NCBI GenBank assembly: GCA_964554375.1
Contig: CAZKOL010000004.1
Span: 16,535 to 80,534 of the forward strand
Length of the DNA stretch: 64,000 bases
Reading direction: 5' to 3'
Source: an uncultured Dehalococcoidales bacterium
Lineage (GTDB): Bacteria; Chloroflexota; Dehalococcoidia; GIF9; UBA5629
Positions within the stretch are counted from its first letter, which is position 1. Every line of letters begins with the position of its first letter. Below are positions 1,874-16,696 of the stretch, piece after piece. Under the pieces are notes generated by a model. The model ran no database searches. It had not been told where the DNA came from and saw only the letters and a program-made list of their open reading frames with translations. The position numbers and the translations under genes are program-made.

Positions 1874-2686
1874 CTATTTCTGCTTAAGCCAGCCGCGGAA
1901 GGCGCGCCCGATACGTGGATTGGCGGCGATGATCTCCCTGTCGTCAATACCGGCCCGGCGGCCTGTAAAATCCGTCACCTCGCCACCTGCTTCCCTGATA
2001 AGGAGCAGCCCGCTGGCCGAATCCCACGGGTAGAGGCTCTTGTGAAAATACAGGCTCAGCCGCCCGCATGCTACATAGGCCATGCCCAGGCTGGAGGAGC
2101 CGATCAGCCTCATACAATGGATCTTCGGCCATAGCCTGATTGCCAGATCCAGAAGTTCACTGCTTATCCCCGCCTGGTAACCCAGGTCCAAGCCAACCGC
2201 GGCGTCCCGCAGGTCCGCAACGTCCGCCACGGAGGTTCTCCTGTTATTCAGGTAAGCGCCTTTGCCCTTGACAGCCCTGAATACCTCGTTGCGCATGGGG
2301 TCGAAGGTAACGCCCAGCAATACCTCACCTTTCCGGGCAAGGGCGATATTCACACAAAATAAAGGCATGCCGAAATGGAAATTGTTGGTGCCGTCCAGGG
2401 GATCGATTATCCAGGTGTATTCGCTGTCCTCCCGCCTGGTCCCCGCCTCCTCGGACATTATCCCGTGTCCCGGGAACGCGGCTGTGATGATGTTCAGTAT
2501 GGTTTTTTCGGACAGCAGGTCGGCTTCGGTGACCAGGTCGCGCCTGCCCTTGACCCTTGTCTCATTATGACGGCCGTAGCGCTGCCGTAGTATCTGCCCC
2601 GCTTCAGCGGCAGCCTGCCTGGCAACCATGTAAGCAGATTGACCCTGAACAGACACCGGCAAAAAGATATCCGGCTTCTCAGGCAT
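1874..2686 (-). CDS. suhB: Inositol monophosphatase family protein (SuhB-like)
   Basis: 270 aa. WIIDPLDGTNNF metal-binding motif is typical of the IMPase/FBPase fold. Confidence 0.85.
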   Translation of the reverse strand: MPEKPDIFLPVSVQGQSAYMVARQAAAEAGQILRQRYGRHNETRVKGRRDLVTEADLLSEKTILNIITAAFPGHGIMSEEAGTRREDSEYTWIIDPLDGTNNFHFGMPLFCVNIALARKGEVLLGVTFDPMRNEVFRAVKGKGAYLNNRRTSVADVADLRDAAVGLDLGYQAGISSELLDLAIRLWPKIHCMRLIGSSSLGMAYVACGRLSLYFHKSLYPWDSASGLLLIREAGGEVTDFTGRRAGIDDREIIAANPRIGRAFRGWLKQK

Positions 2687-3662
2687 TTCTTTTAAGGCCC
2701 ATCTTGAGCTTTACTTCGCCGATGGTCTGACGCGCTATGGCCTGCGCTCGCTGCGCCCCGTCGGCAAGGATATCGTAAATATGCCCGGGGTCCTTCTCCA
2801 GTGTTGATCTCCGCTCACGGAAATCCTTGAGGCTGATGTTGATGCCGGCGGCCAGCAGCTTTTTACAGTCGACGCAGCCTATCCCCGCCACCCTGCACTG
2901 CGCCTCGATCTCTTGAACACGCGACTCGTTGAAAAATTTTTGCAGGCTGAACACGTTGCAGACCTCGGGGTGGCCCGGGTCGTTGCGGCGCTGCCTGGCA
3001 GGATCGGTCATGGCTGTCTTTACCCGCTCCAGCGTCTCATCCGGTGTGGCGGCCAGCTCGATGTGGTTGTTGTAGGACTTTCCCATCTTCTGCCCGCCGT
3101 CAAGGCCGCGCACCATGGGATAATTGGTCAGCCTGGCCTGCGGCTCGGGGAATGTCTCGCCGAAGATGAAATTGAAGCGGCGTACTATCTCCCTCGTCAT
3201 CTCCAGGTGAGGTAACTGGTCCTCGCCTACCGGGACGGCGTCCGATTTATAAAGCATAATGTCGGCGGCCATCAGCACGGGGTAGCCGACCAGGCCGAAA
3301 TTTACGTTCTGCGGCTGCATCCTGGCCTTCTCCTTGAAGGTCGGGACGCGCAGCAGCCAGCCCAGAGGGGTGAGCATGCCCAGCAGGGTGAACAGCTCGG
3401 TAACCTCGGGAACGTGCGACTGCACGAATACAATGGACCTTTTGGGATCGATGCCAGCGGCCAGCCAGTCGAGCGTCATCTCGAAGATGTTCTGCTGTAA
3501 CTCGGAGGTGCTCTCAAGCGTGGTGAGCGCGTGCAGGTCCACTATGCAGTAAATGCAATCATACTCTTCCTGCAGTCGTACATAGTTCTGAATAGCGCCG
3601 ATGTAATTGCCTATGTGCTGCCTGCCGGTGGGGCGCGCGCCGGAGAATACGCGTTTCTTCAT
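2679..3662 (-). CDS. trpS: Tryptophan--tRNA ligase
   Basis: 327 aa class I aaRS. N-terminal PTGRQHIGNYIGA (HIGH-like) and KMGKS (KMSKS) motifs, at the length expected for TrpRS. Confidence 0.9.
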   Translation of the reverse strand: MKKRVFSGARPTGRQHIGNYIGAIQNYVRLQEEYDCIYCIVDLHALTTLESTSELQQNIFEMTLDWLAAGIDPKRSIVFVQSHVPEVTELFTLLGMLTPLGWLLRVPTFKEKARMQPQNVNFGLVGYPVLMAADIMLYKSDAVPVGEDQLPHLEMTREIVRRFNFIFGETFPEPQARLTNYPMVRGLDGGQKMGKSYNNHIELAATPDETLERVKTAMTDPARQRRNDPGHPEVCNVFSLQKFFNESRVQEIEAQCRVAGIGCVDCKKLLAAGINISLKDFRERRSTLEKDPGHIYDILADGAQRAQAIARQTIGEVKLKMGLKRNA

Positions 3663-3692: not shown

Positions 3693-3776
3693 GTCATTGC
3701 GAGGAGCGTAGCGACGAAGCAATCTGTTGTTGCCGCCACTCCAGACACAGGATTGCTTCGCTTCGCTCGCAATGAC
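3693..3776. repeat. Inverted pair of the dispersed palindromic repeat (3693-3724 forward, 3751-3776 inverted) forming an ~85-nt hairpin
   Basis: gtcattgcgaggagcgtagcgacgaagcaatc ... gattgcttcgcttcgctcgcaatgac, with other copies at 23-54, 12441-12459 and 57662-57689. Confidence 0.65.
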
Positions 3777-3922
3777 CGGCTTCTTATCTTGTCACCCAAC
3801 TCGTCAAACCTTATTTCATAGCTGGGGGTGACAAGTGTGACGACTTTGCGGGGGGGGGATAACTGTATGTTTATATTCTTTTTCTATTTACCCGCTAATT
3901 TTTCAAACTCACGTATTCAGTC

Positions 3923-5230
3923 TCAGAGGTTCAGTTCACTCTTGTTAAAACATGCAGCTGCGTCTTTGTGTTTACCCATTGCTTTTAATGCCAAACCTTT
4001 GTGATGCCATGCCTCTCCTGTAGTGGAATCAATTTGTATCACCTTATCAAAACATTTTACTGCATCTTTATAATTATGTAATTTGCTCAGTTCTCTGCCT
4101 TTGTTGTACCACGCATCTATATCGCGAGGATTCAACCTAACCGCCTCATCAAAGCACTTGAGCGCGTCAGAATATTTATTAAGGGCGTCCTGGGCAATAC
4201 CCATGTTATACCAGACAATGGCATTTCGATTATTGAACGTAATGGATTTATCAAAGCATGTCACAGCTTCTCTGAAGTTATTTATATTCATAAGTGCCGT
4301 GCCTTTGCTAAACCACGCTTTGCCAAATTCTGGATCAATATTTATGACATGGTTATAGCATTCAATAGCTTCATCATTCTTCTCAAGATGCCTTAATAGC
4401 TCACCTTTTGCATACCATGCTCCTGTGGATTTCGAATCCAACGCGATAGCTTTATCATAACAGCTCGAAGCTTGGTTGTACTCTCCAATACACATTAGGA
4501 CTGTGCCTTTGTTTACCCAGCCACCAATAAATCTCGGCTCTATCTCAATTACTTTACTAAAGCAGTCAATTGCCTTATCGCACATTTTCTTCTGTAAGAA
4601 TTCTGCTCCATTTGTGTTCTGGATCACAGCTTCTTTTGAATTTAAAACATGATAACCACGGCTGGTTTCGCCGTGTTGTATCTTTTGATCCATAGTTAAA
4701 GCGTCATCGTATAAATAATGTGGGATTTCATAAAGCATTAGTATTGTATGCTTCTTATTACAGTCTCCGTTAATTAATACGAGTATCTCTGAAGCAACTT
4801 TTTTCTCCCTATCTTTAGACGTGAAAAGTATTTTCCCGTCCGGCGTAACGATAGTACAAGTAGCCCATGTTAATGCCCATTCAGAATTGCATTTGTGGCA
4901 TTTCCACCACATATTAATATCATTCCATCTATCGGTAGTAATTTTTATGGGCTTGCTGTCTACCACATCAAAAACATCGATAACAGCATATTTATTTTTA
5001 TTAAATATGTCCGGCATACTTTTATTGATTTTTTCAATGTACTGAATCAATGCACAGGGCGGCTTGAAATGATAGGGCTGATTTTTCATCGGTAATATAT
5101 AGTGATAATTATTTTCATCCAATGCAATCCCAACTTCCCAAACAACTGATTGCTTCGCCTCACAATTGAAACATTGCCTTTCAACTTTGGTAGTGAGCCA
5201 TAGAACACTCTTAAATTTCACCTCGTCCAT
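3923..5230 (-). CDS. Hypothetical protein with an N-terminal Cys-rich (CxxC...CxxC) domain and C-terminal TPR repeats
   Basis: 435 aa encoded in low-GC DNA. Contains CFNCE and CHKCN motifs, and the C-terminal half is made of multiple 34-aa TPR-like repeats (W/F..G.....G.Y..A...Y..A). Confidence 0.6.
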   Translation of the reverse strand: MDEVKFKSVLWLTTKVERQCFNCEAKQSVVWEVGIALDENNYHYILPMKNQPYHFKPPCALIQYIEKINKSMPDIFNKNKYAVIDVFDVVDSKPIKITTDRWNDINMWWKCHKCNSEWALTWATCTIVTPDGKILFTSKDREKKVASEILVLINGDCNKKHTILMLYEIPHYLYDDALTMDQKIQHGETSRGYHVLNSKEAVIQNTNGAEFLQKKMCDKAIDCFSKVIEIEPRFIGGWVNKGTVLMCIGEYNQASSCYDKAIALDSKSTGAWYAKGELLRHLEKNDEAIECYNHVINIDPEFGKAWFSKGTALMNINNFREAVTCFDKSITFNNRNAIVWYNMGIAQDALNKYSDALKCFDEAVRLNPRDIDAWYNKGRELSKLHNYKDAVKCFDKVIQIDSTTGEAWHHKGLALKAMGKHKDAAACFNKSELNL

Positions 5231-5299
5231 GTCCGGTTTCCTCCCCTTTCTAAAACGTGCATAATAAGTCGGTGAGCGACATTATTGGCGCTTCACATT

Positions 5300-6070
5300 C
5301 TATTTCAAAGTATCCATTCGTTTTATGATTTCATTTCCTATCGGAATAATTGATACACTGGCTTCGTCTTTAAAGGAAAGCGAGACGGTGAGGATATAAA
5401 CTTGATATTTTTTAAATATCAGGGTGCTATATGTGTAGTCTTCACCATCGATGTTAGTTGTACCTGTAGCATATGCGCATATATCTCCAATCGATGGATG
5501 ACTAACACTAAATGAAGGATCAGTCATCTGAATACTGTATTCAGTAGCACTTTTACGTAGGTATTTCAGCATATAATCCTTGAATTGTTTGTCGTCTTTA
5601 AGCAGTCCATCATAATAGGCTTGTTCTAAAAATCCACTGGCCTTTATTACAACACTATAAATTACTTGATAAGGTTCATTAGATATAAATAATTGGATTC
5701 CGCTTGCTCCTGTTCCAAGATCTGCAATTTTCTCAGGAGCAAATATCTGGGCAGCGTCTGTTTTGAGGAATCTTGGCGGTAGATTTTCAGCCATGTTTAG
5801 AATATACGGTGCATCGGATAAAGCGATTTTTGAACTTGTGACCGCTGAATTAATAATGATAGCCAATATCACGACGACTGCAATTAATATGATAATTAGT
5901 GCGCGCTTGGATACTATAAACAAGGTCTTTTGCCTCGGAGGTGCAGGCTGATATTCAGCGTCCTCTATTGGCCAAGTTAATTGGACACCGCACTTATCAC
6001 AAATTTTACCCCCCGGCATGACTGGCAGGCCACAACGCGGACATATATAAGTGTGCTGCATTTTATCCAA
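5300..6070 (-). CDS. Zinc-ribbon membrane-anchored protein (N-terminal CPRCG..CDKCG, single TM, extracytoplasmic domain)
   Basis: 256 aa. A zinc ribbon is followed by the hydrophobic segment LIIILIAVVVILAIII, in low-GC DNA. Confidence 0.55.
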   Translation of the reverse strand: MDKMQHTYICPRCGLPVMPGGKICDKCGVQLTWPIEDAEYQPAPPRQKTLFIVSKRALIIILIAVVVILAIIINSAVTSSKIALSDAPYILNMAENLPPRFLKTDAAQIFAPEKIADLGTGASGIQLFISNEPYQVIYSVVIKASGFLEQAYYDGLLKDDKQFKDYMLKYLRKSATEYSIQMTDPSFSVSHPSIGDICAYATGTTNIDGEDYTYSTLIFKKYQVYILTVSLSFKDEASVSIIPIGNEIIKRMDTLK

Positions 6071-6162
6071 TAATAGTTAAAACCTATTGATAATTAATAT
6101 GTCATATACGCGCTATAATCACAGGGAATTGCGCCATCACAAGTATTTTTCCTGTGGGTTCA

Positions 6163-7161
6163 TCATTGTCCCAATTCCGCCGCCTTTTTAAAATCTGCTT
6201 CGGCTTTGCTCTTATCGCCTATTTTATTATATGAAAGCCCACGGTTGTAGTAAGCGTTGGCAAAATTCGGTCTTAATTCTATGGCTTTAGTGCAATCGGC
6301 TATGGAATGGTTGTATTCATTCATAAAAAAATAACTATTCGCACGATTGTAGTATGCTGCTGCATACTTCGGGTTCAGTTCTATTGCTTTAGTGAAATCA
6401 GCTATGGCTTCGTTGCAGCCTCTTAATTTATAGCAAAGTCCACGGTTGTTGAATACTTCTGCATCATTCGGGTTTAGTTCTATTGCTTTGTTTAAATCAA
6501 CTAGAGCTTTGTCACGGTCATTTTGTCGATAATATACATTCCCACGGCCACTATAAGCATCAGCATTATTCGGGTTTAGCGCTATTGCCTTGTTGTAATC
6601 AGAAATAGCTTTGTCATAGTCACCTTTTTTATAATAGGAAAGCCCACGATTGAGGTAAGCGATGGTAGGATCCGGGTCTATCTCTATTGCCTTGGTGAAA
6701 TCAACTATGGCTTTATCATATAGTCCTTCTTTGCCATAGGCCAGCCCACGACCTTGGTAAGCCATGGCATCCTTCGGGTCCAGTCCTATCGATGTAGTAA
6801 AATCAGTAATAGCGTTGTCGTAGTTACCAATGTCACTATAGGCACGCCCGCGCCCGCAGTAAGCCTGGGCATATTTCGGGTCTATATCAATCGCCTTATT
6901 GTAATCAGCTATAGCTTTGTCGTATTCACCTTTGACAGCATAGGAGACACCACGGTAGAAGTAAGCAACAGCATCTTGCGGGTTTAGCGCTATTGCTTTT
7001 GTGTAATTGTCAACGGCCTGGTCCCATTGATTGGGCCCGTTATTTATGCAACTTAAAAGCAACATTACTGTGGCAAGGAAAGCACATACGGTAATTGTAA
7101 TTATTCTCTTGTATTTCATAATTTCCTCTATGTCATGCCTTTTGTTAATTTTGTTGCTCAT
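6163..7161 (-). CDS. TPR-repeat lipoprotein
   Basis: 332 aa. Has a signal peptide with the lipobox LLLSC, followed by about 8 tandem TPR repeats (AYxxRGxxYxxxGxYDKAIxDxxKAIELNP). Its start overlaps the upstream gene by 4 bp (ATGA). Confidence 0.7.
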   Translation of the reverse strand: MSNKINKRHDIEEIMKYKRIITITVCAFLATVMLLLSCINNGPNQWDQAVDNYTKAIALNPQDAVAYFYRGVSYAVKGEYDKAIADYNKAIDIDPKYAQAYCGRGRAYSDIGNYDNAITDFTTSIGLDPKDAMAYQGRGLAYGKEGLYDKAIVDFTKAIEIDPDPTIAYLNRGLSYYKKGDYDKAISDYNKAIALNPNNADAYSGRGNVYYRQNDRDKALVDLNKAIELNPNDAEVFNNRGLCYKLRGCNEAIADFTKAIELNPKYAAAYYNRANSYFFMNEYNHSIADCTKAIELRPNFANAYYNRGLSYNKIGDKSKAEADFKKAAELGQ

Positions 7162-7613
7162 GGTTTATTCTCTTGTCTTGTCATTTCGGATGAGTTTGTT
7201 ATTTGCGCCTGGGTTTTCGATGTCTTTTTATTACTTAGAATAATTGAAATAATCGGGAAAAATAAGGCCAACCAAAGCCAATTTAAACTCCTGCCTTTTT
7301 GATGTAATACCCATCCATTTACAGGTAACATAGCCCAGCACAGAAAGTAGGTTGAAGCATTTTTTGCTGTTCCAACAATGTCGAATCCCAGAAATGTTCT
7401 TAAGAAAGCAATAAAAAAACAAAAACCGAGGAGCCAGAACAACCATGTTAGATTCAAGTGTTTCTTAAACCAGGATGTTTCTACGGTTTTTGATTGTTTA
7501 CTATTTACAACTACGGGTATATTACCTTGGCATCCACAATCATCTGCATAACCCATAAATTCCCTTCCGCACTTCGAGCATGTTCTGTTTATCATCCTAT
7601 TCTTCCTCCCCAT
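7158..7613 (-). CDS. Zinc-ribbon multi-pass membrane protein
   Basis: 151 aa. N-terminal CSKCG...CGC zinc ribbon followed by 3-4 predicted TM helices. Confidence 0.5.
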   Translation of the reverse strand: MGRKNRMINRTCSKCGREFMGYADDCGCQGNIPVVVNSKQSKTVETSWFKKHLNLTWLFWLLGFCFFIAFLRTFLGFDIVGTAKNASTYFLCWAMLPVNGWVLHQKGRSLNWLWLALFFPIISIILSNKKTSKTQAQITNSSEMTRQENKP

Positions 7614-7633
7614 TTGTAGTAAAATGCTGAAGT

Positions 7634-8098
7634 TTATTTGGCTTTACTAAATAGTTTTTTTGGAAAATCAGTATCGCCTATTTTATAAGTTAGTTGGCCA
7701 TCACTTCCTATTACGGCGTATTTCTCTCTGGGTGACCTGGCCACGGTAACCCATTTGCTTTTCTCATTGTCTCCGATAAACATTAGTTTTGCTAACTCCT
7801 GGAAGCTCAGGCAGCATATACCATCTTCACCACATACCAACCCAATAAAGACATCATTAACCCCCTTCTTAACTTCAGTAAGTTCTTTGATATGTTCCGG
7901 TGCAAAAGTGAAACCCCAGGGAGTTAGACGCTTTTTACAATGCTTGATATGGAGATAGACCGTGCTATTGATCAAATAGCCGTTGTTACCTGTAAATAGC
8001 TTTATTGATTCCGGTTTTCCATCTTGAATCAGACGTACCAGTGCAATGCCATGATAAGTTTTATAGTTATCCATTCGCTTTTTGACATAAATTTTCAT
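7634..8098 (-). CDS. Hypothetical protein, possible effector partner of the Z1 ATPase
   Basis: 154 aa ORF whose start overlaps the 3' end of the upstream Z1-ATPase gene by 32 bp. No recognisable motifs. Confidence 0.45.
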   Translation of the reverse strand: MKIYVKKRMDNYKTYHGIALVRLIQDGKPESIKLFTGNNGYLINSTVYLHIKHCKKRLTPWGFTFAPEHIKELTEVKKGVNDVFIGLVCGEDGICCLSFQELAKLMFIGDNEKSKWVTVARSPREKYAVIGSDGQLTYKIGDTDFPKKLFSKAK

Positions 8099-9926
8099 AG
8101 ATTTTAATATTCTCCGCGTACCAATACACTACACGTGATTGGTTCATCGTATTACGTAAAATCATGAAATGATGAAGTGCGCGTGGATATTGCTTTAAAT
8201 CTTTGCCTCCAAATACATTTCTCTGCCTAATTAAATTGTTATGATAATCCGTATCTGCCTCTTGAATTGGCCGTATCTCATGTATTGCGATGTATCCTGC
8301 ATGCGGTTTTGTATTGATTCTAATGAAGTCAATTATGTATTCCGGCAGAACCTCATCGCCGAATTCCTTATTGATTTTTTCTAATTTACCTATCTCATCA
8401 ATGATACGGTCGTGGATTATTTCCTCAATTCTATTTGAATACTTGAAGACTGCGAATAACATCTCGCCTTCTTTTAGAACCACCGCTCTTTTATCTATGC
8501 TACCTGACGCGGCCGGCGTGATTCGATTGTCAGCAAGCCAGATGGGTGCACCTCTTTTTGTCTTTATAGCTTGTAGTGACAGATAATGATATACAAAACA
8601 CCTGTGCCAATCCGCATATAATGTTTTTGGTATAGATAATTCAAATAGATCCAGATATCCCTTCCGATTTCCAAACATTCTTGCTCTTTGTATATAAGTA
8701 TCTTGCTGTATTCGATGCTTGGCATCCCTGGTGAAAAACATGCTTAATAGGTTATTGATTGTGATGCCTCTTGATATCATATTGCCACCGATTATTATCG
8801 TAAATAGAGACGGTGGTTCAGTCGTGATCATGCTGCTTTTTTTCTGGTAATTCATGACCTCAACAAATTTTTTCCCCAGATGGCTGATCACAAATTCTAC
8901 TATCTTATCAGCAGTTTTTTCGCCATATTTATTATTTGCAGTCTCCCAAAGTCGTCTAATGTATTTATCTCGTTGCTGGTCGCCATTGTCATTTAAGATG
9001 CGTAGAACGTCAGATACCACTTTTTTATCTTTGTCATGAGCATCTGTTTTTCCACTTGTGTGGATTAGAAAACAGCATTTAACATCGTCATGAAGAGCTG
9101 TTGTCATTTTATTCTTAATATTTTCATCAATATTGACGTACCCGACATTTACTATAAATCTTAATAATGCATCTATAAGGTATTTAGGATCGTCCCCTGT
9201 ATCCTTCAAAGGTACTAATGAATAATGCAGTGGTACCGTCAGGTCAATGGGAAAGAATTCATTTTTACCCACATAGTATTCGTGTGGTTCAAAGCACAGC
9301 CAGTTCTTTGAAATATTGTCGAAAGTATTATTTAAGTCTATTCGCGCCGGTGTAGCAGTAACGCCTACATAAATTCCATTGTTATCGAGTAGCTTGTTTA
9401 TTTCATCGTTTATCCTGCTTCTCTCATTTTTATTTATTTTTGAATTAGGAGAGGCGAAGTCAGCTTCGTCGTCAATGACAACCTTGCCGCGTTTGTTGCG
9501 CAGATATTCATTTAATTTCTTTAAAACGTTAGCGTTTTTCCTCGAAAATATAATGCATCGGTCGTCAACCATTTTCGGATCAGTAACAGAAATAATATCA
9601 ACCGGTGTCGGATCTATGTCCGAATCTTGAAATCGCTTCAGATTTTGTTCCAATAACGGGATAGTGTCATTTATTAGAATTACTATGTTTTTGTGTCCAA
9701 GGTCTTGCAGTTTCGAGGTTAAAGCGACCATCATTTCAGTTTTACCACTTTGCGGCTCACCATATATTACAAATGACTTGGCACCCGATTCCAAATTACC
9801 TACGGCTTCCATAACCGTTTTTTCGATGTGTTCTGTGTTCTTTCCTCTGTTACGTAATGCGTTGATATGTCTGTCGTATCTATCGGCATCAGAAGTTAGA
9901 TCTTTGAATTTGTTAATATCGAACAT
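8067..9926 (-). CDS. Z1-domain SF2-helicase-like ATPase (defence-island associated)
   Basis: 619 aa. Walker A VIYGEPQSGKTEM, Walker B VVIDDEADFASP, motif III GVTATPARI, and a C-terminal IIIGGNMISRGITINNL segment typical of Z1-domain proteins. AT-rich codon usage. Confidence 0.7.
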   Translation of the reverse strand: MFDINKFKDLTSDADRYDRHINALRNRGKNTEHIEKTVMEAVGNLESGAKSFVIYGEPQSGKTEMMVALTSKLQDLGHKNIVILINDTIPLLEQNLKRFQDSDIDPTPVDIISVTDPKMVDDRCIIFSRKNANVLKKLNEYLRNKRGKVVIDDEADFASPNSKINKNERSRINDEINKLLDNNGIYVGVTATPARIDLNNTFDNISKNWLCFEPHEYYVGKNEFFPIDLTVPLHYSLVPLKDTGDDPKYLIDALLRFIVNVGYVNIDENIKNKMTTALHDDVKCCFLIHTSGKTDAHDKDKKVVSDVLRILNDNGDQQRDKYIRRLWETANNKYGEKTADKIVEFVISHLGKKFVEVMNYQKKSSMITTEPPSLFTIIIGGNMISRGITINNLLSMFFTRDAKHRIQQDTYIQRARMFGNRKGYLDLFELSIPKTLYADWHRCFVYHYLSLQAIKTKRGAPIWLADNRITPAASGSIDKRAVVLKEGEMLFAVFKYSNRIEEIIHDRIIDEIGKLEKINKEFGDEVLPEYIIDFIRINTKPHAGYIAIHEIRPIQEADTDYHNNLIRQRNVFGGKDLKQYPRALHHFMILRNTMNQSRVVYWYAENIKIYENLCQKANG

Positions 9927-10191
9927 TTTGTGCTCTTTGTATAATTAGCTTTCTCGACTTATTATGAATGCAATAACTTCGTAAATTGTCTACACCGATC
10001 TGCGCAGGATTATATAACTCTTTTTATAACTACGCAATACTATTAATGTTCTAAACCCGTCAATACCCTATAAGACCCTGACAAACCCCTTTTTAACAGT
10101 CTAAATATGCTGACGCGGCTGTCAATGGCTATGTATTTACTTGAAAATGCACAACGTGAGGGTAACTACGACCTGGCAGCCCTGGCCGTTC

Positions 10192-10462
10192 CTACATGCC
10201 GTCGAGCGCAGTCACTCCCATGAGGTGGAGCGCCCTGGCCAAGACTATTTGTGCGGCCATCACCAGCTTCAGCCTGGCAGCCGTAAGGTCCGCATCTTCC
10301 GAGATGACGCGGCACTGCTCATGGAAAGGACTGTAAGACCGTGTCCAGGTCCTGGGCGTAGAAAGGCAGGTGATGCAGCTGGTGTGACAGCGCAACTGTC
10401 TCGATTATCTCCAGCATCCTGGCCATGCTGCGTATCAGCGCCAACTGGGGCTCCTCAATCAG
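10192..10462 (-). pseudogene. Duplicated, diverged 3'-terminal fragment of argS (about 90 codons), the left direct repeat of the integration signature
   Basis: Translation [43 protein letters not shown] parallels the ArgS C-terminus [43 protein letters not shown] encoded at 12484-12753. Nucleotide similarity extends across 10085-10462 versus 12226-12753. Confidence 0.75.
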
Positions 10463-10469
10463 GTTTCAT

Positions 10470-12143
10470 CTATTTCACAATCGTTATCTGCCGTGGATCG
10501 GTCGCTATAATGCACGGAGCCCCCTTGTAACGGTCGATTTTCCCCAGAACCCTCACATTATTATCCATATAGGTAAACACGTCAGGGAATTTCTTGAAGT
10601 CCTGGATATTGATGACCACCCTGAAATCAGTTCCGCACTGTCCCTGTTTCCAAGCGTCGTAGTTGTTACAATGTTGATTCGGATTATCAAAATATAGCAA
10701 CATGGGTCGGGTTTCTACGTCCCAGGCACTGGCATATTCAACAACTGACCCTTCGATAGCTACTTCCTTGCCCAAATATTTGTTTATTTTTTCTAAGTCT
10801 AAAGCAGAAATTGTCGTTTCCGGTTTAATAGTTATCTCGGCCATTGTTGGCGCCTTTAGTTTCTCGGCCAATTCGTAGGGCACTTTCCCCCAGTTTGGTG
10901 ATCCATCAGCATAGTTGTTATTAATAATCCTTGTTACGTTGCTTCCATCTGCATCCATGGTATATATTTGCCATGCGTTTTTAAAGCGAATACCGAAATC
11001 CAATGGTTTACCATCTCTATCCGATACGAATGCTATCTTTTTGCCATCGGGTGACCATTCCGACCAATCGTTAAACTGACCATGTCCACCAATATTTTGC
11101 GCTTGAGTTAAATTTATTTGATGACTTCCATCAGAATTCATAACATAAATATCGTAAATTTCGGTATTTACATCTTTTTTAGAACTTAGGTAGGCTATTT
11201 TGCTGTCATCAGGAGAGTATGCTCCACCTCCGTCCCAGGTGACATATTGCGATGTCAAAGTTTTAATGCTTTTCATCAGTGGATTTGAATTTGGATCGAA
11301 CAATGACGTACTAGTGCGTGCTGGTTTGAGAACCAATCTGTTACCTGTATATGACCACGATTCACCGGAATAGTTGTCTGGAGTGGAGTTGAAAATAATC
11401 TGCTTGACCATATCGTAATCTATGTCAATTTCCCACAAACTATATCCACCATCGCCCAAAGTATTACATATCAGCTTTTTCCCATCACGTGACCATTTTG
11501 GCCATGAATACGCTTCTGGCGTTGTAGTAATTTTCAAGAATTTGGTTCCCTCTGCATTCATAACCCAAATGTGACCGTAATTTGAATGTGTAGAACAAAA
11601 TACAATCATAGTGCCATCCGGTGACCAACTGGGCATGCTATCCCATTTAAGACTGCCAGTGAGATTCTTGACATTTCCACCATCTACATCCATAACGAAA
11701 ATATCCCAGTTGTTATCTCCTTTATTATCAGGTTCCCATTTTCTGTCTGAGACGAATAATATCTTTTTCCCATCAGGTGACAAACTGGGTATTAAATCCA
11801 TATCTGAGTTATTTGTTAAGTTCACCTGGTTATTACCGTCTGGATCCATGATATAGATTTCATAATTATTCCCAGATAACACATTCCAGCCTTTTGCCCA
11901 GTCCCACTGCCACGTGGCATCGCGCAACGACCAGAATACGATTTTCTCCTGATATTCTGGATTCTGTGGCAAAGCGGCCGGTTTAGTCAGAGTCTTATTA
12001 TCAACCTCGGTCGGGGATTGGGGTTTTATTGATTGATTATCAACAACAACCGGTAGGGGAGTCTTAATACCAGGTGTACAACTTACAAAAATTGTAATAA
12101 TAACCAATAATGAAACGGCTATAACGACTGACATTTTAACCAT
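10470..12143 (-). CDS. TolB-like beta-propeller (PD40-repeat) lipoprotein with an uncharacterised C-terminal domain
   Basis: 557 aa. Signal peptide/lipobox FVSC, a Pro/Gln-rich linker, repeated SPDG/SWSPDGK PD40 motifs, and low GC content. Confidence 0.7.
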   Translation of the reverse strand: MVKMSVVIAVSLLVIITIFVSCTPGIKTPLPVVVDNQSIKPQSPTEVDNKTLTKPAALPQNPEYQEKIVFWSLRDATWQWDWAKGWNVLSGNNYEIYIMDPDGNNQVNLTNNSDMDLIPSLSPDGKKILFVSDRKWEPDNKGDNNWDIFVMDVDGGNVKNLTGSLKWDSMPSWSPDGTMIVFCSTHSNYGHIWVMNAEGTKFLKITTTPEAYSWPKWSRDGKKLICNTLGDGGYSLWEIDIDYDMVKQIIFNSTPDNYSGESWSYTGNRLVLKPARTSTSLFDPNSNPLMKSIKTLTSQYVTWDGGGAYSPDDSKIAYLSSKKDVNTEIYDIYVMNSDGSHQINLTQAQNIGGHGQFNDWSEWSPDGKKIAFVSDRDGKPLDFGIRFKNAWQIYTMDADGSNVTRIINNNYADGSPNWGKVPYELAEKLKAPTMAEITIKPETTISALDLEKINKYLGKEVAIEGSVVEYASAWDVETRPMLLYFDNPNQHCNNYDAWKQGQCGTDFRVVINIQDFKKFPDVFTYMDNNVRVLGKIDRYKGAPCIIATDPRQITIVK

Positions 12144-12282
12144 TCTTCTGCCTCCATAGATCTCCGATACTATAGTTTAGGTTATCCGTCATAACAATGC
12201 CACTATGCGAGTGCCCCACCCGACCCTGACAAAACCCCCTTTTTTAATGCGCACAAATGTACTATTATGGTAGTCAACGGCC

Positions 12283-12400
12283 ATGTCTTTACTTGAAAAA
12301 GCGCTACGGGAAGGTAATTACGAGTTGGCGGCTCTGACCATCGTCTACGGCATGCTCAGAGTGTTACATGATAGAAAAGAAGCAGAAAGGGGCCCCCCAG
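12283..12400 (+). other. Small ORF/conserved segment (MSLLEKALREGNYELAAL...) that is part of the duplicated attachment-like region; a diverged copy begins at 10125
   Basis: The two copies share MxxLLExAxREGNY(D/E)LAAL. Coding status is uncertain. Confidence 0.25.
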
Positions 12401-12483
12401 GGGCAACCAGAACGCCCGGAGGCACGGGTTCTACAGCTTTTGCTTTCGTTCGCAATGACGGGGTGAGGAGGGGCCGGCGCGTC

Positions 12484-14142
12484 CTACATCTTATCCGGCG
12501 CGGTCATGCCCATCAGGTGTAGCGTCCTGGCCAGGACTATTCTTGCGGCCAGTACGAGCTTCAGCCGGGCGGCGGTCAGGTCCGCGTCTTCCGAGATGAC
12601 GCGGCACTGTTTATAGAAGGAATGAAAGACCGTGGCCAGGTCCTGGGCGTAGAAGGTCAGGTGATGGGGCTGGTGTGACAGCGCGACGGTCTCGATGATC
12701 TCAGGCATTTTGGCCATGCTGCGTATCAGGGTCAACTCCGGCTCCTCAATCAGCAGGCTTGTATCGCCGTTGGCGAAGTCGATCCCTTTCTCCGCTGCGT
12801 TGCGCAGGATGCTGCTGATGCGCGCGTGCGCGTACTGCACATAATAGACCGGGTTGTCGGCGGACTGCTTTATGGCCAGCTCCAGGTCGAAGTCCATCTG
12901 GCTATCAGCCGAGCGCGACAGGAAAACGAAGCGGCAGGCATCGGGGCCGACCTCCTCCAGCAGCTCGCGCAGTGTGATGATATCGCCGCTCCTTTTGGAG
13001 ATTTTAACCGCCTCTTTGCCGCGCCTCAGTGTGACAAGCTGGCAGATGATGATCTCGAGCCTTTCGGAGTCGATGCCCAGCGCTCCCAGCACTACCTTCA
13101 TCCGCTGGACATGGCCCTGGTGATCAGCCCCCCAGATGTCGATGACATTGTCGAACTTCCTCACGGCGAACTTGTCGTAGTGATATGCAATATCGGAGGC
13201 AAAATAGGTGGGTGTACCATCGGAGCGCACCAGGACATTATCCTTGTCCTCTCCCAGGGTGGAGGAGGTGAACCAGGTGGCATTCTCCCTTTCTGCTATA
13301 TAGCCACCGTCCCTCAGCATGCGCATCGTGTCGTCATACCGGCCGCTCTTGAACAGGCTTTGCTCGCTGAACCACTCATTGAAGGTTACGCCCAGCGTTT
13401 CAAGGTCCTGCCTGATCTGCTGCATCTCCCTCTCTATCCCGATCTGACCGATCTCCGCCACGGCGCGCTCCTCAGGCAGGCCGGCGTATTTATCTCCGTA
13501 TTGCTTAACGAGTTCCCTGGCCAGGTCTACGAGATAGCTGCCGTGATACCCGTTGGCCGGTACCTCGACCTCCTTTCCCAGGGCCTGCAGGTAGCGTGCA
13601 TACAATGACCGGTGGAAAGCCTCGAGCTGGCTGCCGGCATCATTTATGTAATATTCCGTTGAAACCCTGTAGCCGGCCGCTTTAAGGACGTTGGCCAGCG
13701 TGCTGCCCAGCACGGCCCCCCGCCCATGTCCCACGTGAAGGGGCCCGGTGGGATTTCCGCTGACGAACTCAATCTGGATGCTTTTGTCCTCAAGTTGTAT
13801 GTTGCCGTAAGCCTCGCCTGCCCGGCAGATGGCGTCCACCTGGCGGTTCAGCCATTTTTTACTCAGCGTAAAGTTGATAAACCCCGGCGGCGCCGCAGCA
13901 ACCTTCTCTAAATCGCTGTCCGGTGACATGTGATCAACTATGGCAGCGGCCACGTCCATGGGCTTCATCCCGGTCAGCCGCGCCAGCTTGAGTGGCAGGC
14001 TGCTGGCATAGTCTCCGTGTTCCGGCCTGGCAGGCCTCTCGATTGTTATCTCCGGCAGGCTGGAGTTACCCACCAGGCCTTTTTCGCCAGCCATGGCAAA
14101 GGCCTGCTCCAGCATTTCAGCCAGCCGTTTTTTAAAAATCAT
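12484..14142 (-). CDS. argS: Arginine--tRNA ligase
   Basis: 552 aa class I aaRS with HVGHGRG (HIGH) and KISKRSG (KMSKS) motifs, plus an N-terminal Arg-tRNA-synthetase add-on domain. Confidence 0.92.
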
Positions 14143-14209: not shown

Positions 14210-16696
14210 TTAATTGTTTTCTATGCTTTTATGCCAGATTCTATAGTATTCCAGGCGTAAAAGCTCATTTTCAACTGCTGTTAAACCGGGGTCCTTTTCA
14301 AACAGTATCCCGGCTTCCCTGCGGGCCAGCTCCAGCAGGCGAACATCCGACAACCTGGCCATCTTCAAGTCGGGCAGGCCGCTCTGGCGCGTTCCGAAAA
14401 ACTCGCCAGGTCCCCTCAGTTCAAGGTCCTTCTCGGCGAGCGCAAAACCATCGGTCAACTCCTCTATGGCCCTCAGTCTCTCCTGACCGTATTCCGAGGG
14501 GTTCTCCGACAGCAGTATACAATAACTCTGGTTCTCACCCCGGCCAACCCTCCCACGGAACTGGTGCAACTGGGAAAGGCCGAACCGGTCAGCCGCCTCC
14601 ACCAGCATCACGGTTGCGTTGGGCACGTCTATGCCGACCTCTACCACCGAAGTAGAGATCAGTACATCCAGCGCGCCGTCTTTGAAGTCGTGCATTACGG
14701 CTTCCTTGTCGGCGTTTTTCATCCTGCCATGCAGCAGTCCCAGCCTTAAATCGGGAAAAATCTCGCTCGACAGGCGCTTATGTTCAGCCACGGCGGCCTT
14801 TGCCTCCAGGCTCTCGGACTCTTCGATCAAAGGGCAGATAATAAAGGACTGGCGCCCCTCGCCAGCCTGCTTCCTGATAAAATTGTATGCGCGCTGGCGG
14901 TCCTGCGGCTTCAACCAGCGTGTTTTGATCACCTGCCTGCCCGCAGGCATCTCGTCTATGGTCGATATATCCAGGTCGCCGAAAAGGGTCAGCGCCAGTG
15001 TCCTGGGTATGGGTGTGGCCGTCATGACCAGCAGGTGAGGATTATACCCTTTCTGTTTTAAAGCTGAGCGCTGCAGCACGCCGAAGCGGTGCTGCTCATC
15101 TACCACAGCCAGACCCAGAGCGGCAAACTGAACCCCCTTCTGCACCAGCGCATGTGTCCCAACAACTATATCCACCTCTCCCCGCCTCAGCAATTCGTGT
15201 ATCCTGGATTTGTCCCCGGCGGCAAGGCTGCCCGTGAGCAGGGCAACGCTTATCTCGCGCTGCATGATGCCCTTAAATGTGATGATATTCGTTTCCCTGC
15301 TGCTGCCGGTTGATACGGCCGACAACAGACTGTAAAGAGTTGTGAAATGCTGCTCGGCGAGTATCTCGGTCGGCGCCATAAGGGCGCCCTGGCAACCATT
15401 GGCTGCCGCCTCCAGCAGCGCCACGGTGGCAACGACTGTCTTGCCGCTGCCCACGTCGCCCTGCAGCAAACGCGACATGGGCACGTCGCGGCCCAGGTCC
15501 CGGCATATCTCGTCTATCACCCTGAGCTGCGCGGAGGTCAGCTTGAAAGGCAATGCCTCGACAAATCCATTTATATTTTTTTGTTCGATGCGGAATCGCC
15601 GTCCCGGCTGTTCCTCCTGCCAGTTACGCTTCTTGCTGAGCACACCGAGCTGCAACAGGAAAAGCTCGTCGAAAGCCAGTCTCTGGCGGGCTTTATTCTG
15701 TGATGCGTAATCGATGGGATAGTGCGCCTGCATAACCGCATCCTGCAACTCCATCAGCCCGCAGCGCTGCCTGACCGGGGACGGGAGGAATTCGGGCAGG
15801 TTCCCCAGGTACACATCCAGCGCACTTCTGACCATGGTCCTGACCTGCCTGGGGTAAAGGCCGCCGGTCAAAGGGTAAACGGGGACCATCCGCCCCGTAT
15901 GAAGCAACTCCCTGTCGTCCACCACCTCCCACTCGGGATTTTCGAATACCTTGATATAGTTGAACTCGCCCACCCTGCCGCTGAGAGCAACTTTAGCATT
16001 GACTTTGAGCTGCTTTGCCACCCACGGCTGGTTAAACCATACGGCGCGCACGTTGCCGGTCTCGTCTCCCAGGACGGCCTCGGTGCTTTTCATGCGGCCC
16101 AGCATAACCTGGCGGGCTTCCCATACATTGACGAATATGGTCTGCTCTTTTCCGGTTTCCAGTGTTGATACGGTGCGGCGCTGGCTGAAATCCATGAAAC
16201 GCCGCGGAAAAAAATAGAGAAGGTCTCTTATGCAGTCGACCCCCAGCCTGGCTAAACGGACAGCGATAGTCTGTCCCACCCCTTTTACCCCAGCCACCGG
16301 CCAATCCAATGATGCGACCGCCACCGCGCCCGGTTTGGGCTTCTTTATTACCCCAACCCCGGTCTTCTGCGCAGCAGATTCTCCTTGCTGTGCAGCAATA
16401 TCACAACCCTTCTCCACATGGTCCAGTTCTTGCAACACCGATGCCACCCATATGCGACGCGCATCGACGCTCCTTTCAGCATAGGCGGGCGGGCTGAGCA
16501 GCAAAGTTTTTAATTGCGGGCAGAACACAGAAAAATCATGGCCGGGCGAGCACTGTGAAACCCACCTGGCCACGTATTTGTCGAGGCCGCCTATGACTGC
16601 GCGGTTGGCATAACCGTTTGTGGCTTCCAGATTTAATACAGTTCTGAAAATAGCGGCGCTGTCAACAAAAGGCTGCATCATGGACGCCGCTTTCAC
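14210..16696 (-). CDS. recG: ATP-dependent DNA helicase RecG
   Basis: Helicase motifs GDVGSGKT, VVDEQHRFGV, VMTATPIPRTLA, plus an N-terminal wedge region. Synteny downstream of yloV/degV also supports the call. The N-terminal start is uncertain. Confidence 0.88.
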   Translation of the reverse strand: MKAASMMQPFVDSAAIFRTVLNLEATNGYANRAVIGGLDKYVARWVSQCSPGHDFSVFCPQLKTLLLSPPAYAERSVDARRIWVASVLQELDHVEKGCDIAAQQGESAAQKTGVGVIKKPKPGAVAVASLDWPVAGVKGVGQTIAVRLARLGVDCIRDLLYFFPRRFMDFSQRRTVSTLETGKEQTIFVNVWEARQVMLGRMKSTEAVLGDETGNVRAVWFNQPWVAKQLKVNAKVALSGRVGEFNYIKVFENPEWEVVDDRELLHTGRMVPVYPLTGGLYPRQVRTMVRSALDVYLGNLPEFLPSPVRQRCGLMELQDAVMQAHYPIDYASQNKARQRLAFDELFLLQLGVLSKKRNWQEEQPGRRFRIEQKNINGFVEALPFKLTSAQLRVIDEICRDLGRDVPMSRLLQGDVGSGKTVVATVALLEAAANGCQGALMAPTEILAEQHFTTLYSLLSAVSTGSSRETNIITFKGIMQREISVALLTGSLAAGDKSRIHELLRRGEVDIVVGTHALVQKGVQFAALGLAVVDEQHRFGVLQRSALKQKGYNPHLLVMTATPIPRTLALTLFGDLDISTIDEMPAGRQVIKTRWLKPQDRQRAYNFIRKQAGEGRQSFIICPLIEESESLEAKAAVAEHKRLSSEIFPDLRLGLLHGRMKNADKEAVMHDFKDGALDVLISTSVVEVGIDVPNATVMLVEAADRFGLSQLHQFRGRVGRGENQSYCILLSENPSEYGQERLRAIEELTDGFALAEKDLELRGPGEFFGTRQSGLPDLKMARLSDVRLLELARREAGILFEKDPGLTAVENELLRLEYYRIWHKSIENN

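Follow-up and report, generated by a model that had tools for sequence, protein, structure and literature searches.

We analyzed a stretch of 64,000 nucleotides (nt) from an uncultured Dehalococcoidales bacterium (GCA_964554375.1, contig CAZKOL010000004.1, positions 16,535–80,534, forward strand), hereafter called the window, in which the 3' end of argS occurs twice and brackets a gene for a TolB-like protein. In the seven closest species representatives (L001–L007), the order degV, recG, argS, trpS, suhB, aminotransferase gene, and lrp is kept, and argS and trpS are separated by 64–126 bp. The corresponding separation in the window is 8.8 kb (Table 1). Given the short distance in the relatives, the whole of ~3693–12483 (~8.8 kb) is inserted DNA. 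A preliminary description of this locus had regarded only the TolB-like gene as foreign, which was too narrow. Most of the inserted DNA has a guanine-plus-cytosine (GC) content of ~38–41% vs. 55% in the host, and both repeat copies are GC-rich patches inside the AT-rich insert.

Self-BLASTN of the window aligned 10190-10462 with 12482-12753 (83.5% identity over 273 nt, E 3e-77) and 10074-10187 with 12222-12339 (72% over 118 nt, E 7e-9). The same two pairs were recovered by a separate repeat search, and no third copy was found within the 64-kb window. The pairs make up copy A (10074-10462) and copy B (12222-12753), direct repeats on the same strand, 2.29 kb apart. The preliminary description had presented 10085-10462 as a diverged copy of 12226-12753. 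The alignment bears out the relationship and the right ends (10462 and 12753); the left ends had to be moved to 10074 and 12222. Identical blocks of 20-23 nt had been noted as well, and the 23-nt block tcttccgagatgacgcggcactg is indeed present in both copies. Copy B consists of the last 89 codons and the stop codon of argS, in agreement with the earlier estimate of ~90 codons, plus 262 nt downstream. In copy A, ~140 nt of copy B (12340-12481) are missing, and a 1-nt insertion breaks the argS frame.

Table 1. Features of the argS–trpS interval, given in window positions
Feature	Position	Strand	Evidence
trpS, conserved left-hand neighbor	2679..3662	-	Pfam tRNA-synt_1b, E 4e-69; synteny with L001–L007
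Palindromic REP-like element (GTCATTGCGAG...CTCGCAATGAC), left edge of insert	3693..3775	.	Same element beside trpS in L109
Conserved phage noncoding region with TTGTCAC/GTGACAA repeats	3776..3853	.	79-86% identity to L094, L088, L089, L090, L091, L098, L142
Low-GC (38%) accessory-gene region of prophage remnant E1	3854..10073	-	Pfam; GC content matches variable region of intact prophages
TPR proteins of E1	3923-5230, 6163-7161	-	Pfam
Zinc-ribbon membrane proteins of E1	5300-6070, 7158-7613	-	Pfam
154-amino-acid (aa) ORF of E1	7634-8098	-	Same position in intact prophages L093/L141
Z1/helicase protein of E1	8067-9926	-	PADLOC Helicase_II, E 5.8e-44
Copy A, phage part: packaging-operon promoter region and first 19-20 codons of leader ORF	10074..10187	+	72-75% identity to cassettes of at least 20 loci
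Copy A, argS pseudo-tail: codons 464-552 and stop	10192..10462	-	1-nt frameshift, 17-19 private substitutions
TolB-like PD40 beta-propeller protein, lipoprotein-type N-terminus, 557 aa, 41% GC	10470..12143	-	Pfam PD40, E 4e-29
Copy B, phage part: packaging-operon cassette	12222..12437	+	91.6-95.4% identity to L094 and to intact prophages L088, L093
Degenerate REP piece and ~25 nt directly downstream of argS	12438..12483	.	Both common to closest relative L094
Copy B, argS part: last 270 nt of intact argS	12484-12753	-	Repeat of 10192-10462
Intact argS, 552 aa	12484..14142	-	Pfam Arg_tRNA_synt_N, tRNA-synt_1d, DALR_1; 92.4% nt identity to L094

The unit that is repeated joins a degraded tailed prophage to the argS 3' end. 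Its phage side corresponds to the first 216 bp of a packaging operon, with the promoter, a 54-aa leader open reading frame (ORF), and the beginning of the gene for the terminase small subunit. The leader ORF had previously been described as a small ORF downstream of argS; it belongs to the phage packaging module, together with the terminase small subunit, and not to the host. Its first 49 residues recovered a conserved family of ~54-aa ORFs, comprising 52 metagenome loci and 8 IMG/VR viral loci. The family (window 12283-12447; L087-L146) follows the pattern MSLLEKAL.EGNYELAAL.IVYGML.V.H... and has no Pfam or PHROGs match. Variation among its members concentrates at third codon positions (23/15/48 over the three positions), indicating that the ORF is coding. 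At intact loci, the leader ORF overlaps, in another frame, the start of the 115-aa terminase small subunit gene directly downstream. Relatives with longer argS–trpS gaps have an unrelated hexapeptide-repeat gene there, not the leader ORF. In the cassette of copy B (cassette B), the leader ORF starts at 12283 and a terminase small subunit remnant of ~22 codons (12372-12437), detected by tblastn, is frameshifted and has an extra C. The cassette of copy A (cassette A') is shortened by the ~140-nt deletion, and its leader ORF is cut at codon 20.

Intact members of the family show the gene order tRNA, tyrosine integrase, HTH_17 excisionase-like gene, 455-aa early gene, variable region, packaging cassette, terminase small and large subunits, portal, and major capsid. 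The tRNA gene adjoining the integrase gene is specific for Val, Thr, Met, or Arg. In L093, PHROGs matches were obtained for the integrase (1.9e-81), portal (1e-31), capsid (1.6e-58), and terminase small subunit (4.7e-8). The leader ORF upstream of terminase, portal, and capsid genes and the integrase beside a tRNA gene identify a tailed temperate phage family. The locus defines such a family in Dehalococcoidia, characterized by the conserved leader ORF before the terminase and by a low-GC accessory-gene bay. In the intact prophages L093, L088, L100, and L106, the backbone has 54-59% GC and the variable region 37-41%; the window segments have 38% and 41%. The bay, located between the 455-aa early gene and the packaging cassette, is sharply bounded, and its contents differ in every locus. 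Cassette B of the window is 94-95% identical to L088 and L093. Direct repeats of tRNA 3' ends marking the right ends of intact prophages were not found within the 10-kb flanks. The TTGTCAC/GTGACAA repeats also occur at L094 3387-3452, and a CCTGACAAAACCCCC motif opens the packaging cassette (window 12222-12240). Both motifs are conserved across the family and may be putative regulator binding sites or a late promoter. IME1 elements of Dehalococcoides were considered as relatives and rejected; they are unrelated and do not have tailed-phage hallmark genes (bioRxiv 10.64898/2026.09.15.751708).

The prophage remnant on the trpS side, designated E1, can be placed on this map. Its noncoding region at 3776-3853 has a counterpart directly downstream of the 455-aa early gene in intact prophages and is therefore the left landmark of E1. 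This landmark and the packaging cassette are the flanks of the variable region in intact prophages. Among the genes between them, 7158-7613 has a counterpart of 88% nt identity in the accessory region of L106/L143. The Z1/helicase and 154-aa genes form a pair that lies directly before the packaging cassette in L093 (7465-9778) and L141 (6625-8905). Since an intact prophage keeps these overlapping genes at the cassette-proximal end of its accessory region, they are a candidate phage-borne defense pair. The stop codon of the TolB-like gene is located 7 nt from the argS pseudo-tail. Tblastn searches with the integrase, the excisionase-like protein, and the 455-aa early protein of the phage family found nothing in the window, and genes for the terminase large subunit, portal, and capsid are missing as well. 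A tyrosine recombinase profile made from eight integrases reached at best E 0.59 against the 259 window ORFs; serine recombinases were not specifically searched. The phage landmarks, the collinear accessory genes, and the low GC content indicate that both AT-rich segments are prophage remnants. Judged by gene content, the island is best described as a remnant of a tailed temperate phage (Caudoviricetes) and not as a functional prophage, with the integrase, replication, and structural genes all lost. For annotation, 10192-10462 is an argS pseudogene fragment and ~3693-12483 is prophage-derived DNA.

The arrangement was also found in other assemblies. More than 20 metagenome contigs from independent assemblies encode exact copies of the TolB-like, Z1, and 154-aa proteins, and each has the order argS, TolB, 41-aa ORF (copy A), Z1, 154, 151, 332, 256, 435, and trpS. 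Over 20 independent assemblies, drawn from different samples and from two sources of data, cover the entire arrangement from recG to trpS. Thus, the structure is real and fixed in a natural population, not an assembly artifact. The source is a metagenome-type organism, and contig L081, which is 99.6% identical to the window, begins inside copy A; both would fit a chimera joining the argS regions of two strains. With so many assemblies spanning the entire arrangement, we give a chimera practically no credence.

Next, the divergence of the two tails was considered. Copies A and B differ by 16.5%, and their dN/dS is 0.18. A detached fragment cannot be selected for ArgS function, so most of this divergence must have arisen in separate working argS genes. 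Accordingly, a segmental duplication of the argS tail region in this genome, followed by divergence in place, is very improbable, even though the copies are direct repeats on one strand at a short distance. It is contradicted by the substitution pattern. Moreover, the phage cassette parts of the two copies differ by 28%, yet cassette B is 94-95% identical to intact phages, and the single TolB-like gene between the repeats does not fit a simple tandem duplication. The private changes of copy A (17-19) are spread 9/4/4 by codon position, as in neutral-like evolution, and its nonsynonymous divergence (pN) is 0.09-0.12, compared with 0.035-0.067 among functional tails. Copy A is a displaced tail that left a working gene fairly recently and is decaying. 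The preliminary description was therefore right that the copies are of separate origin and that one of them, copy A, was displaced.

Copy B behaves as host DNA. The closest relative, L094, has 92.4% nt identity to the window in the argS body and a synonymous divergence (pS) of 0.25-0.28 in flanking genes. Cassette B, the REP piece, and the 25 nt past the argS stop codon are all common to L094, where the REP-like element lies between the terminase remnant and argS. There is no divergence break at argS codon 463 in comparisons with L001, L094, or L169; pS values of argS body and tail are 0.416 and 0.436 vs. L169 and 0.251 and 0.334 vs. L094. The sharing with L094 and the lack of a break at codon 463 indicate that copy B follows the host phylogeny. 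The tail comprises 270 nt with ~65 synonymous sites, which limits the power of this comparison for the gene-attached tail. Aligning both tails to the argS genes of relatives, as the preliminary description had proposed, favors copy B as native, weakly; distances to L001, L094, L109, and L169 were weakly informative on this question. A donor with copy A inside a full argS gene was not found, and no scored hits were obtained when the copy A peptide, with its frame repaired, served as a protein query. A look-up of the ArgS protein for exact matches also came back empty. In recG (14210-16696), the synonymous divergence from L094 is 0.05-0.16 in the 3' half vs. ~0.26 in all neighboring genes. The drop points to a recent homologous exchange of the recG 3' half between the window and L094 lineages, and thus to DNA exchange between these lineages by homologous recombination.

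A related arrangement exists in a second lineage. In L169 and L171, whose core genes differ from those of the window by a pS of 0.36-0.44, a 71%-identical TolB-like homologue stands alone between argS and trpS (L169 7832-9925; L171 1521-3614). In L171, the sequence 7 nt past the TolB stop codon is CTGTTTGTGGAGC TA ATGTAGGA, a 23-nt relic of an argS tail (13 + 2 + 8 nt). Here, CTGTTTGTGGAGC matches 11/13 of the first 13 nt of the window tails and ATGTAGGA matches 8/8 of the final 8 nt; the chance of the 13-mer match at a fixed offset is ~1e-5 (binomial estimate, equal base frequencies assumed). The relic indicates that the junction between TolB and codon 463 is common to both lineages and mostly eroded in the second. 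Between the window and the second lineage, the TolB-like alleles differ by a pS of 0.63, compared with 0.44 for the functional tails and 0.42 for the argS body. It therefore seems that the pseudo-tail, unlike the functional tail, moves together with the TolB-like gene. Copy B, which follows the host phylogeny, is not as deeply diverged as the TolB-like gene, contrary to what the earlier proposal of an element-supplied replacement 3' end of argS would predict.

In a distant member of the Dehalococcoidia (L072), a 44-nt, 91%-identical direct repeat contains the last 14 argS codons and the stop codon (11613-11656, 12244-12287). It brackets a 587-nt insert with a marR-like gene and its own promoter. 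TolB-like homologues also occur elsewhere. In L175, one was found in an unrelated context, and the homology ends at the stop codon. Another, 63% identical, is carried by a different integrative element (L172 1404-12458) with genes for a 354-aa tyrosine integrase, AAA_25, and HTH_17 proteins; this suggests that proteins with PD40 repeats are often carried on the mobile DNA of Dehalococcoidia. The argS–trpS spacer is an insertion hot spot in an uncultured Dehalococcoidia lineage.

How did the tandem junctions arise? We favor, at somewhat better than even confidence, homology-driven recombination between island variants of related strains. At the start, a single remnant would have run from argS through cassette B, Z1, and the other accessory genes to trpS. 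The Z1-bearing phage L093 has a B-type cassette (94%), not an A-type one (73%), which fits a single remnant with cassette B beside Z1. A block consisting of the TolB-like gene, the pseudo-tail, and cassette A' would then have been inserted into this original remnant. A DNA circle with the TolB-like gene and a junction copy could have entered by a single crossover (Campbell type), or one homologous crossover could have combined with one illegitimate join at argS codon 463. Later, related lineages would have swapped island variants, with argS, the pseudo-tail, and trpS as anchors. On this reading, no element is active at the locus today. The homologous segment on both sides of a recombinase-free insert is consistent with homology-driven insertion and not specific to it.

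Several points weigh against this scenario, for which we infer the mechanism from anatomy only. Copies A and B share their end point, where 14 bases at the argS-internal edge are identical, and the second lineage has the same junction; the core of a site-specific attachment (att) site would give the same in both cases. The phage family targets tRNA genes, and no tRNA gene is present between argS and trpS in relatives; our scenario does not account for an island at this site. Unusual base composition could be part of the reason for the high pS of the TolB-like gene, and the argS-tail repeat of L072 hints at a recurrent, possibly targeted process. Finally, ~65 synonymous sites resolve only weakly which copy is native, and the assignment of copy B to the host is not secure; copy A may instead be native, with ~17 decay changes.

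The shared end position is what integrase-mediated, site-specific integration into the argS 3' end would produce, possibly in series (tandem accretion), with a core near codon 463 (GGCTCCTCAATCAG). In that case, the element's own replacement tail would have displaced an earlier tail, and the recombinase would later have been deleted or would act from elsewhere in the genome. Such a process would also account for copies that flank the insert beside an intact argS, for the junction in L171 despite a divergence of the TolB-like alleles that exceeds that of their hosts, and for the L072 repeat around a single gene. It has precedents in e14 and phage 21 at icd and in the ssrA islands of Dehalococcoides. 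However, neither the island nor the 64-kb window contains a recombinase, the intact phage relatives adjoin tRNA genes, and no IMG/VR viral contig encodes the ArgS C-terminus (two scans, with a single sequence and with a 14-sequence alignment). The phage sequence beside each tail is a truncated terminase gene, that is, a deletion product and not an arm of a phage attachment site (attP), and the gene-attached tail tracks the host phylogeny, not the cargo. In addition, 14 consecutive matches are unremarkable at 83% identity (0.83^14 ~0.07), and the supposed core in L171 differs between the two copies (8/13 bases). We therefore regard integrase-mediated integration as unlikely, at roughly half the weight of homology-driven recombination. 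The interpretation of the repeat as an integration scar in the preliminary description holds in that the locus is a scar of foreign-DNA acquisition; its integrase component agrees neither with the gene content of the window nor with the tRNA-adjacent position of the phage relatives.

A further reading, which we consider doubtful and less probable still, is that the argS 3' tail serves as a portable homology arm for single-gene cassettes, or that an unrecognized recombinase encoded elsewhere targets codon 463. The TolB-like cassette (here and in L169/L171), and perhaps the marR-like one of L072, would carry a piece of the argS tail. It would insert in the Campbell manner at the argS 3' end of related Dehalococcoidia and loop out between the tails, with no recombinase of its own. 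Only if this idea of a recombinase-free cassette is true would the locus represent a new kind of mobile element.

Two other sets of observations were made in the window. The REP-like palindrome (GTCATTGCGAG...CTCGCAATGAC) recurs between genes at 22-54, 3693-3775, and 12438-12459, which places it ~90 nt before the lrp-like gene starting at 147, upstream of trpS, and at the prophage/argS junction. In related genomes, it is present at L094 5497-5575, L109 ~2470-2559, L100 1095-1176, and L144 5230-5279. A second low-GC patch of the window (36–39 kb) was checked for mobile genes and contains housekeeping genes only. In this patch of slightly lower GC amid housekeeping genes (holA, purD), a 211-aa ORF at 36405-37040 matches only the first 136 of 298 positions of a phosphotriesterase family profile and may be a truncated gene.

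A recombination scar in a degraded-prophage island is a known kind of feature, and the repeat is not evidence of an active argS-targeting element. The e14 element and phage 21 integrate into icd of Escherichia coli and leave a duplicated, diverged icd 3' end. As in our locus, an essential gene remains intact, and foreign DNA is flanked by a direct, partial, and diverged repeat of its 3' end. In those systems, however, the integrase and the new 3' end both come from the element. Our locus has no integrase, its gene-attached copy is host-like, and the spare copy goes with the cargo. Islands targeted to ssrA are known from Dehalococcoides mccartyi, which belongs to the same bacterial class, and tandem accretion is known from the cis-mobilizable elements (CIMEs) of Streptococcus thermophilus. 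They share with our locus tandem foreign segments that are split by repeats of the 3' end of a conserved gene, some of the units being without recombination genes. In contrast, their att cores are short (~20-30 bp) and they have recombinases, whereas the repeats described here are 390-530 bp long, are diverged, and include phage DNA.

Campbell-type insertion-duplication and homology-facilitated illegitimate recombination have been described in naturally transformable bacteria. Here too, a single or one-sided homologous crossover duplicates a segment around an insert, and no recombinase is needed. To our knowledge, neither DNA uptake nor these two types of recombination have been demonstrated in Dehalococcoidia, and the assignment at our locus follows from anatomy alone. 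A displaced gene tail can mark, and possibly promote, the exchange of island variants between related strains. Finally, the island resembles grounded tailed prophages, in that low-GC accessory genes were kept, including the Z1/helicase candidate defense gene, and the integrase and structural genes were lost; it differs from them in that its two remnants abut duplicated pieces of argS.

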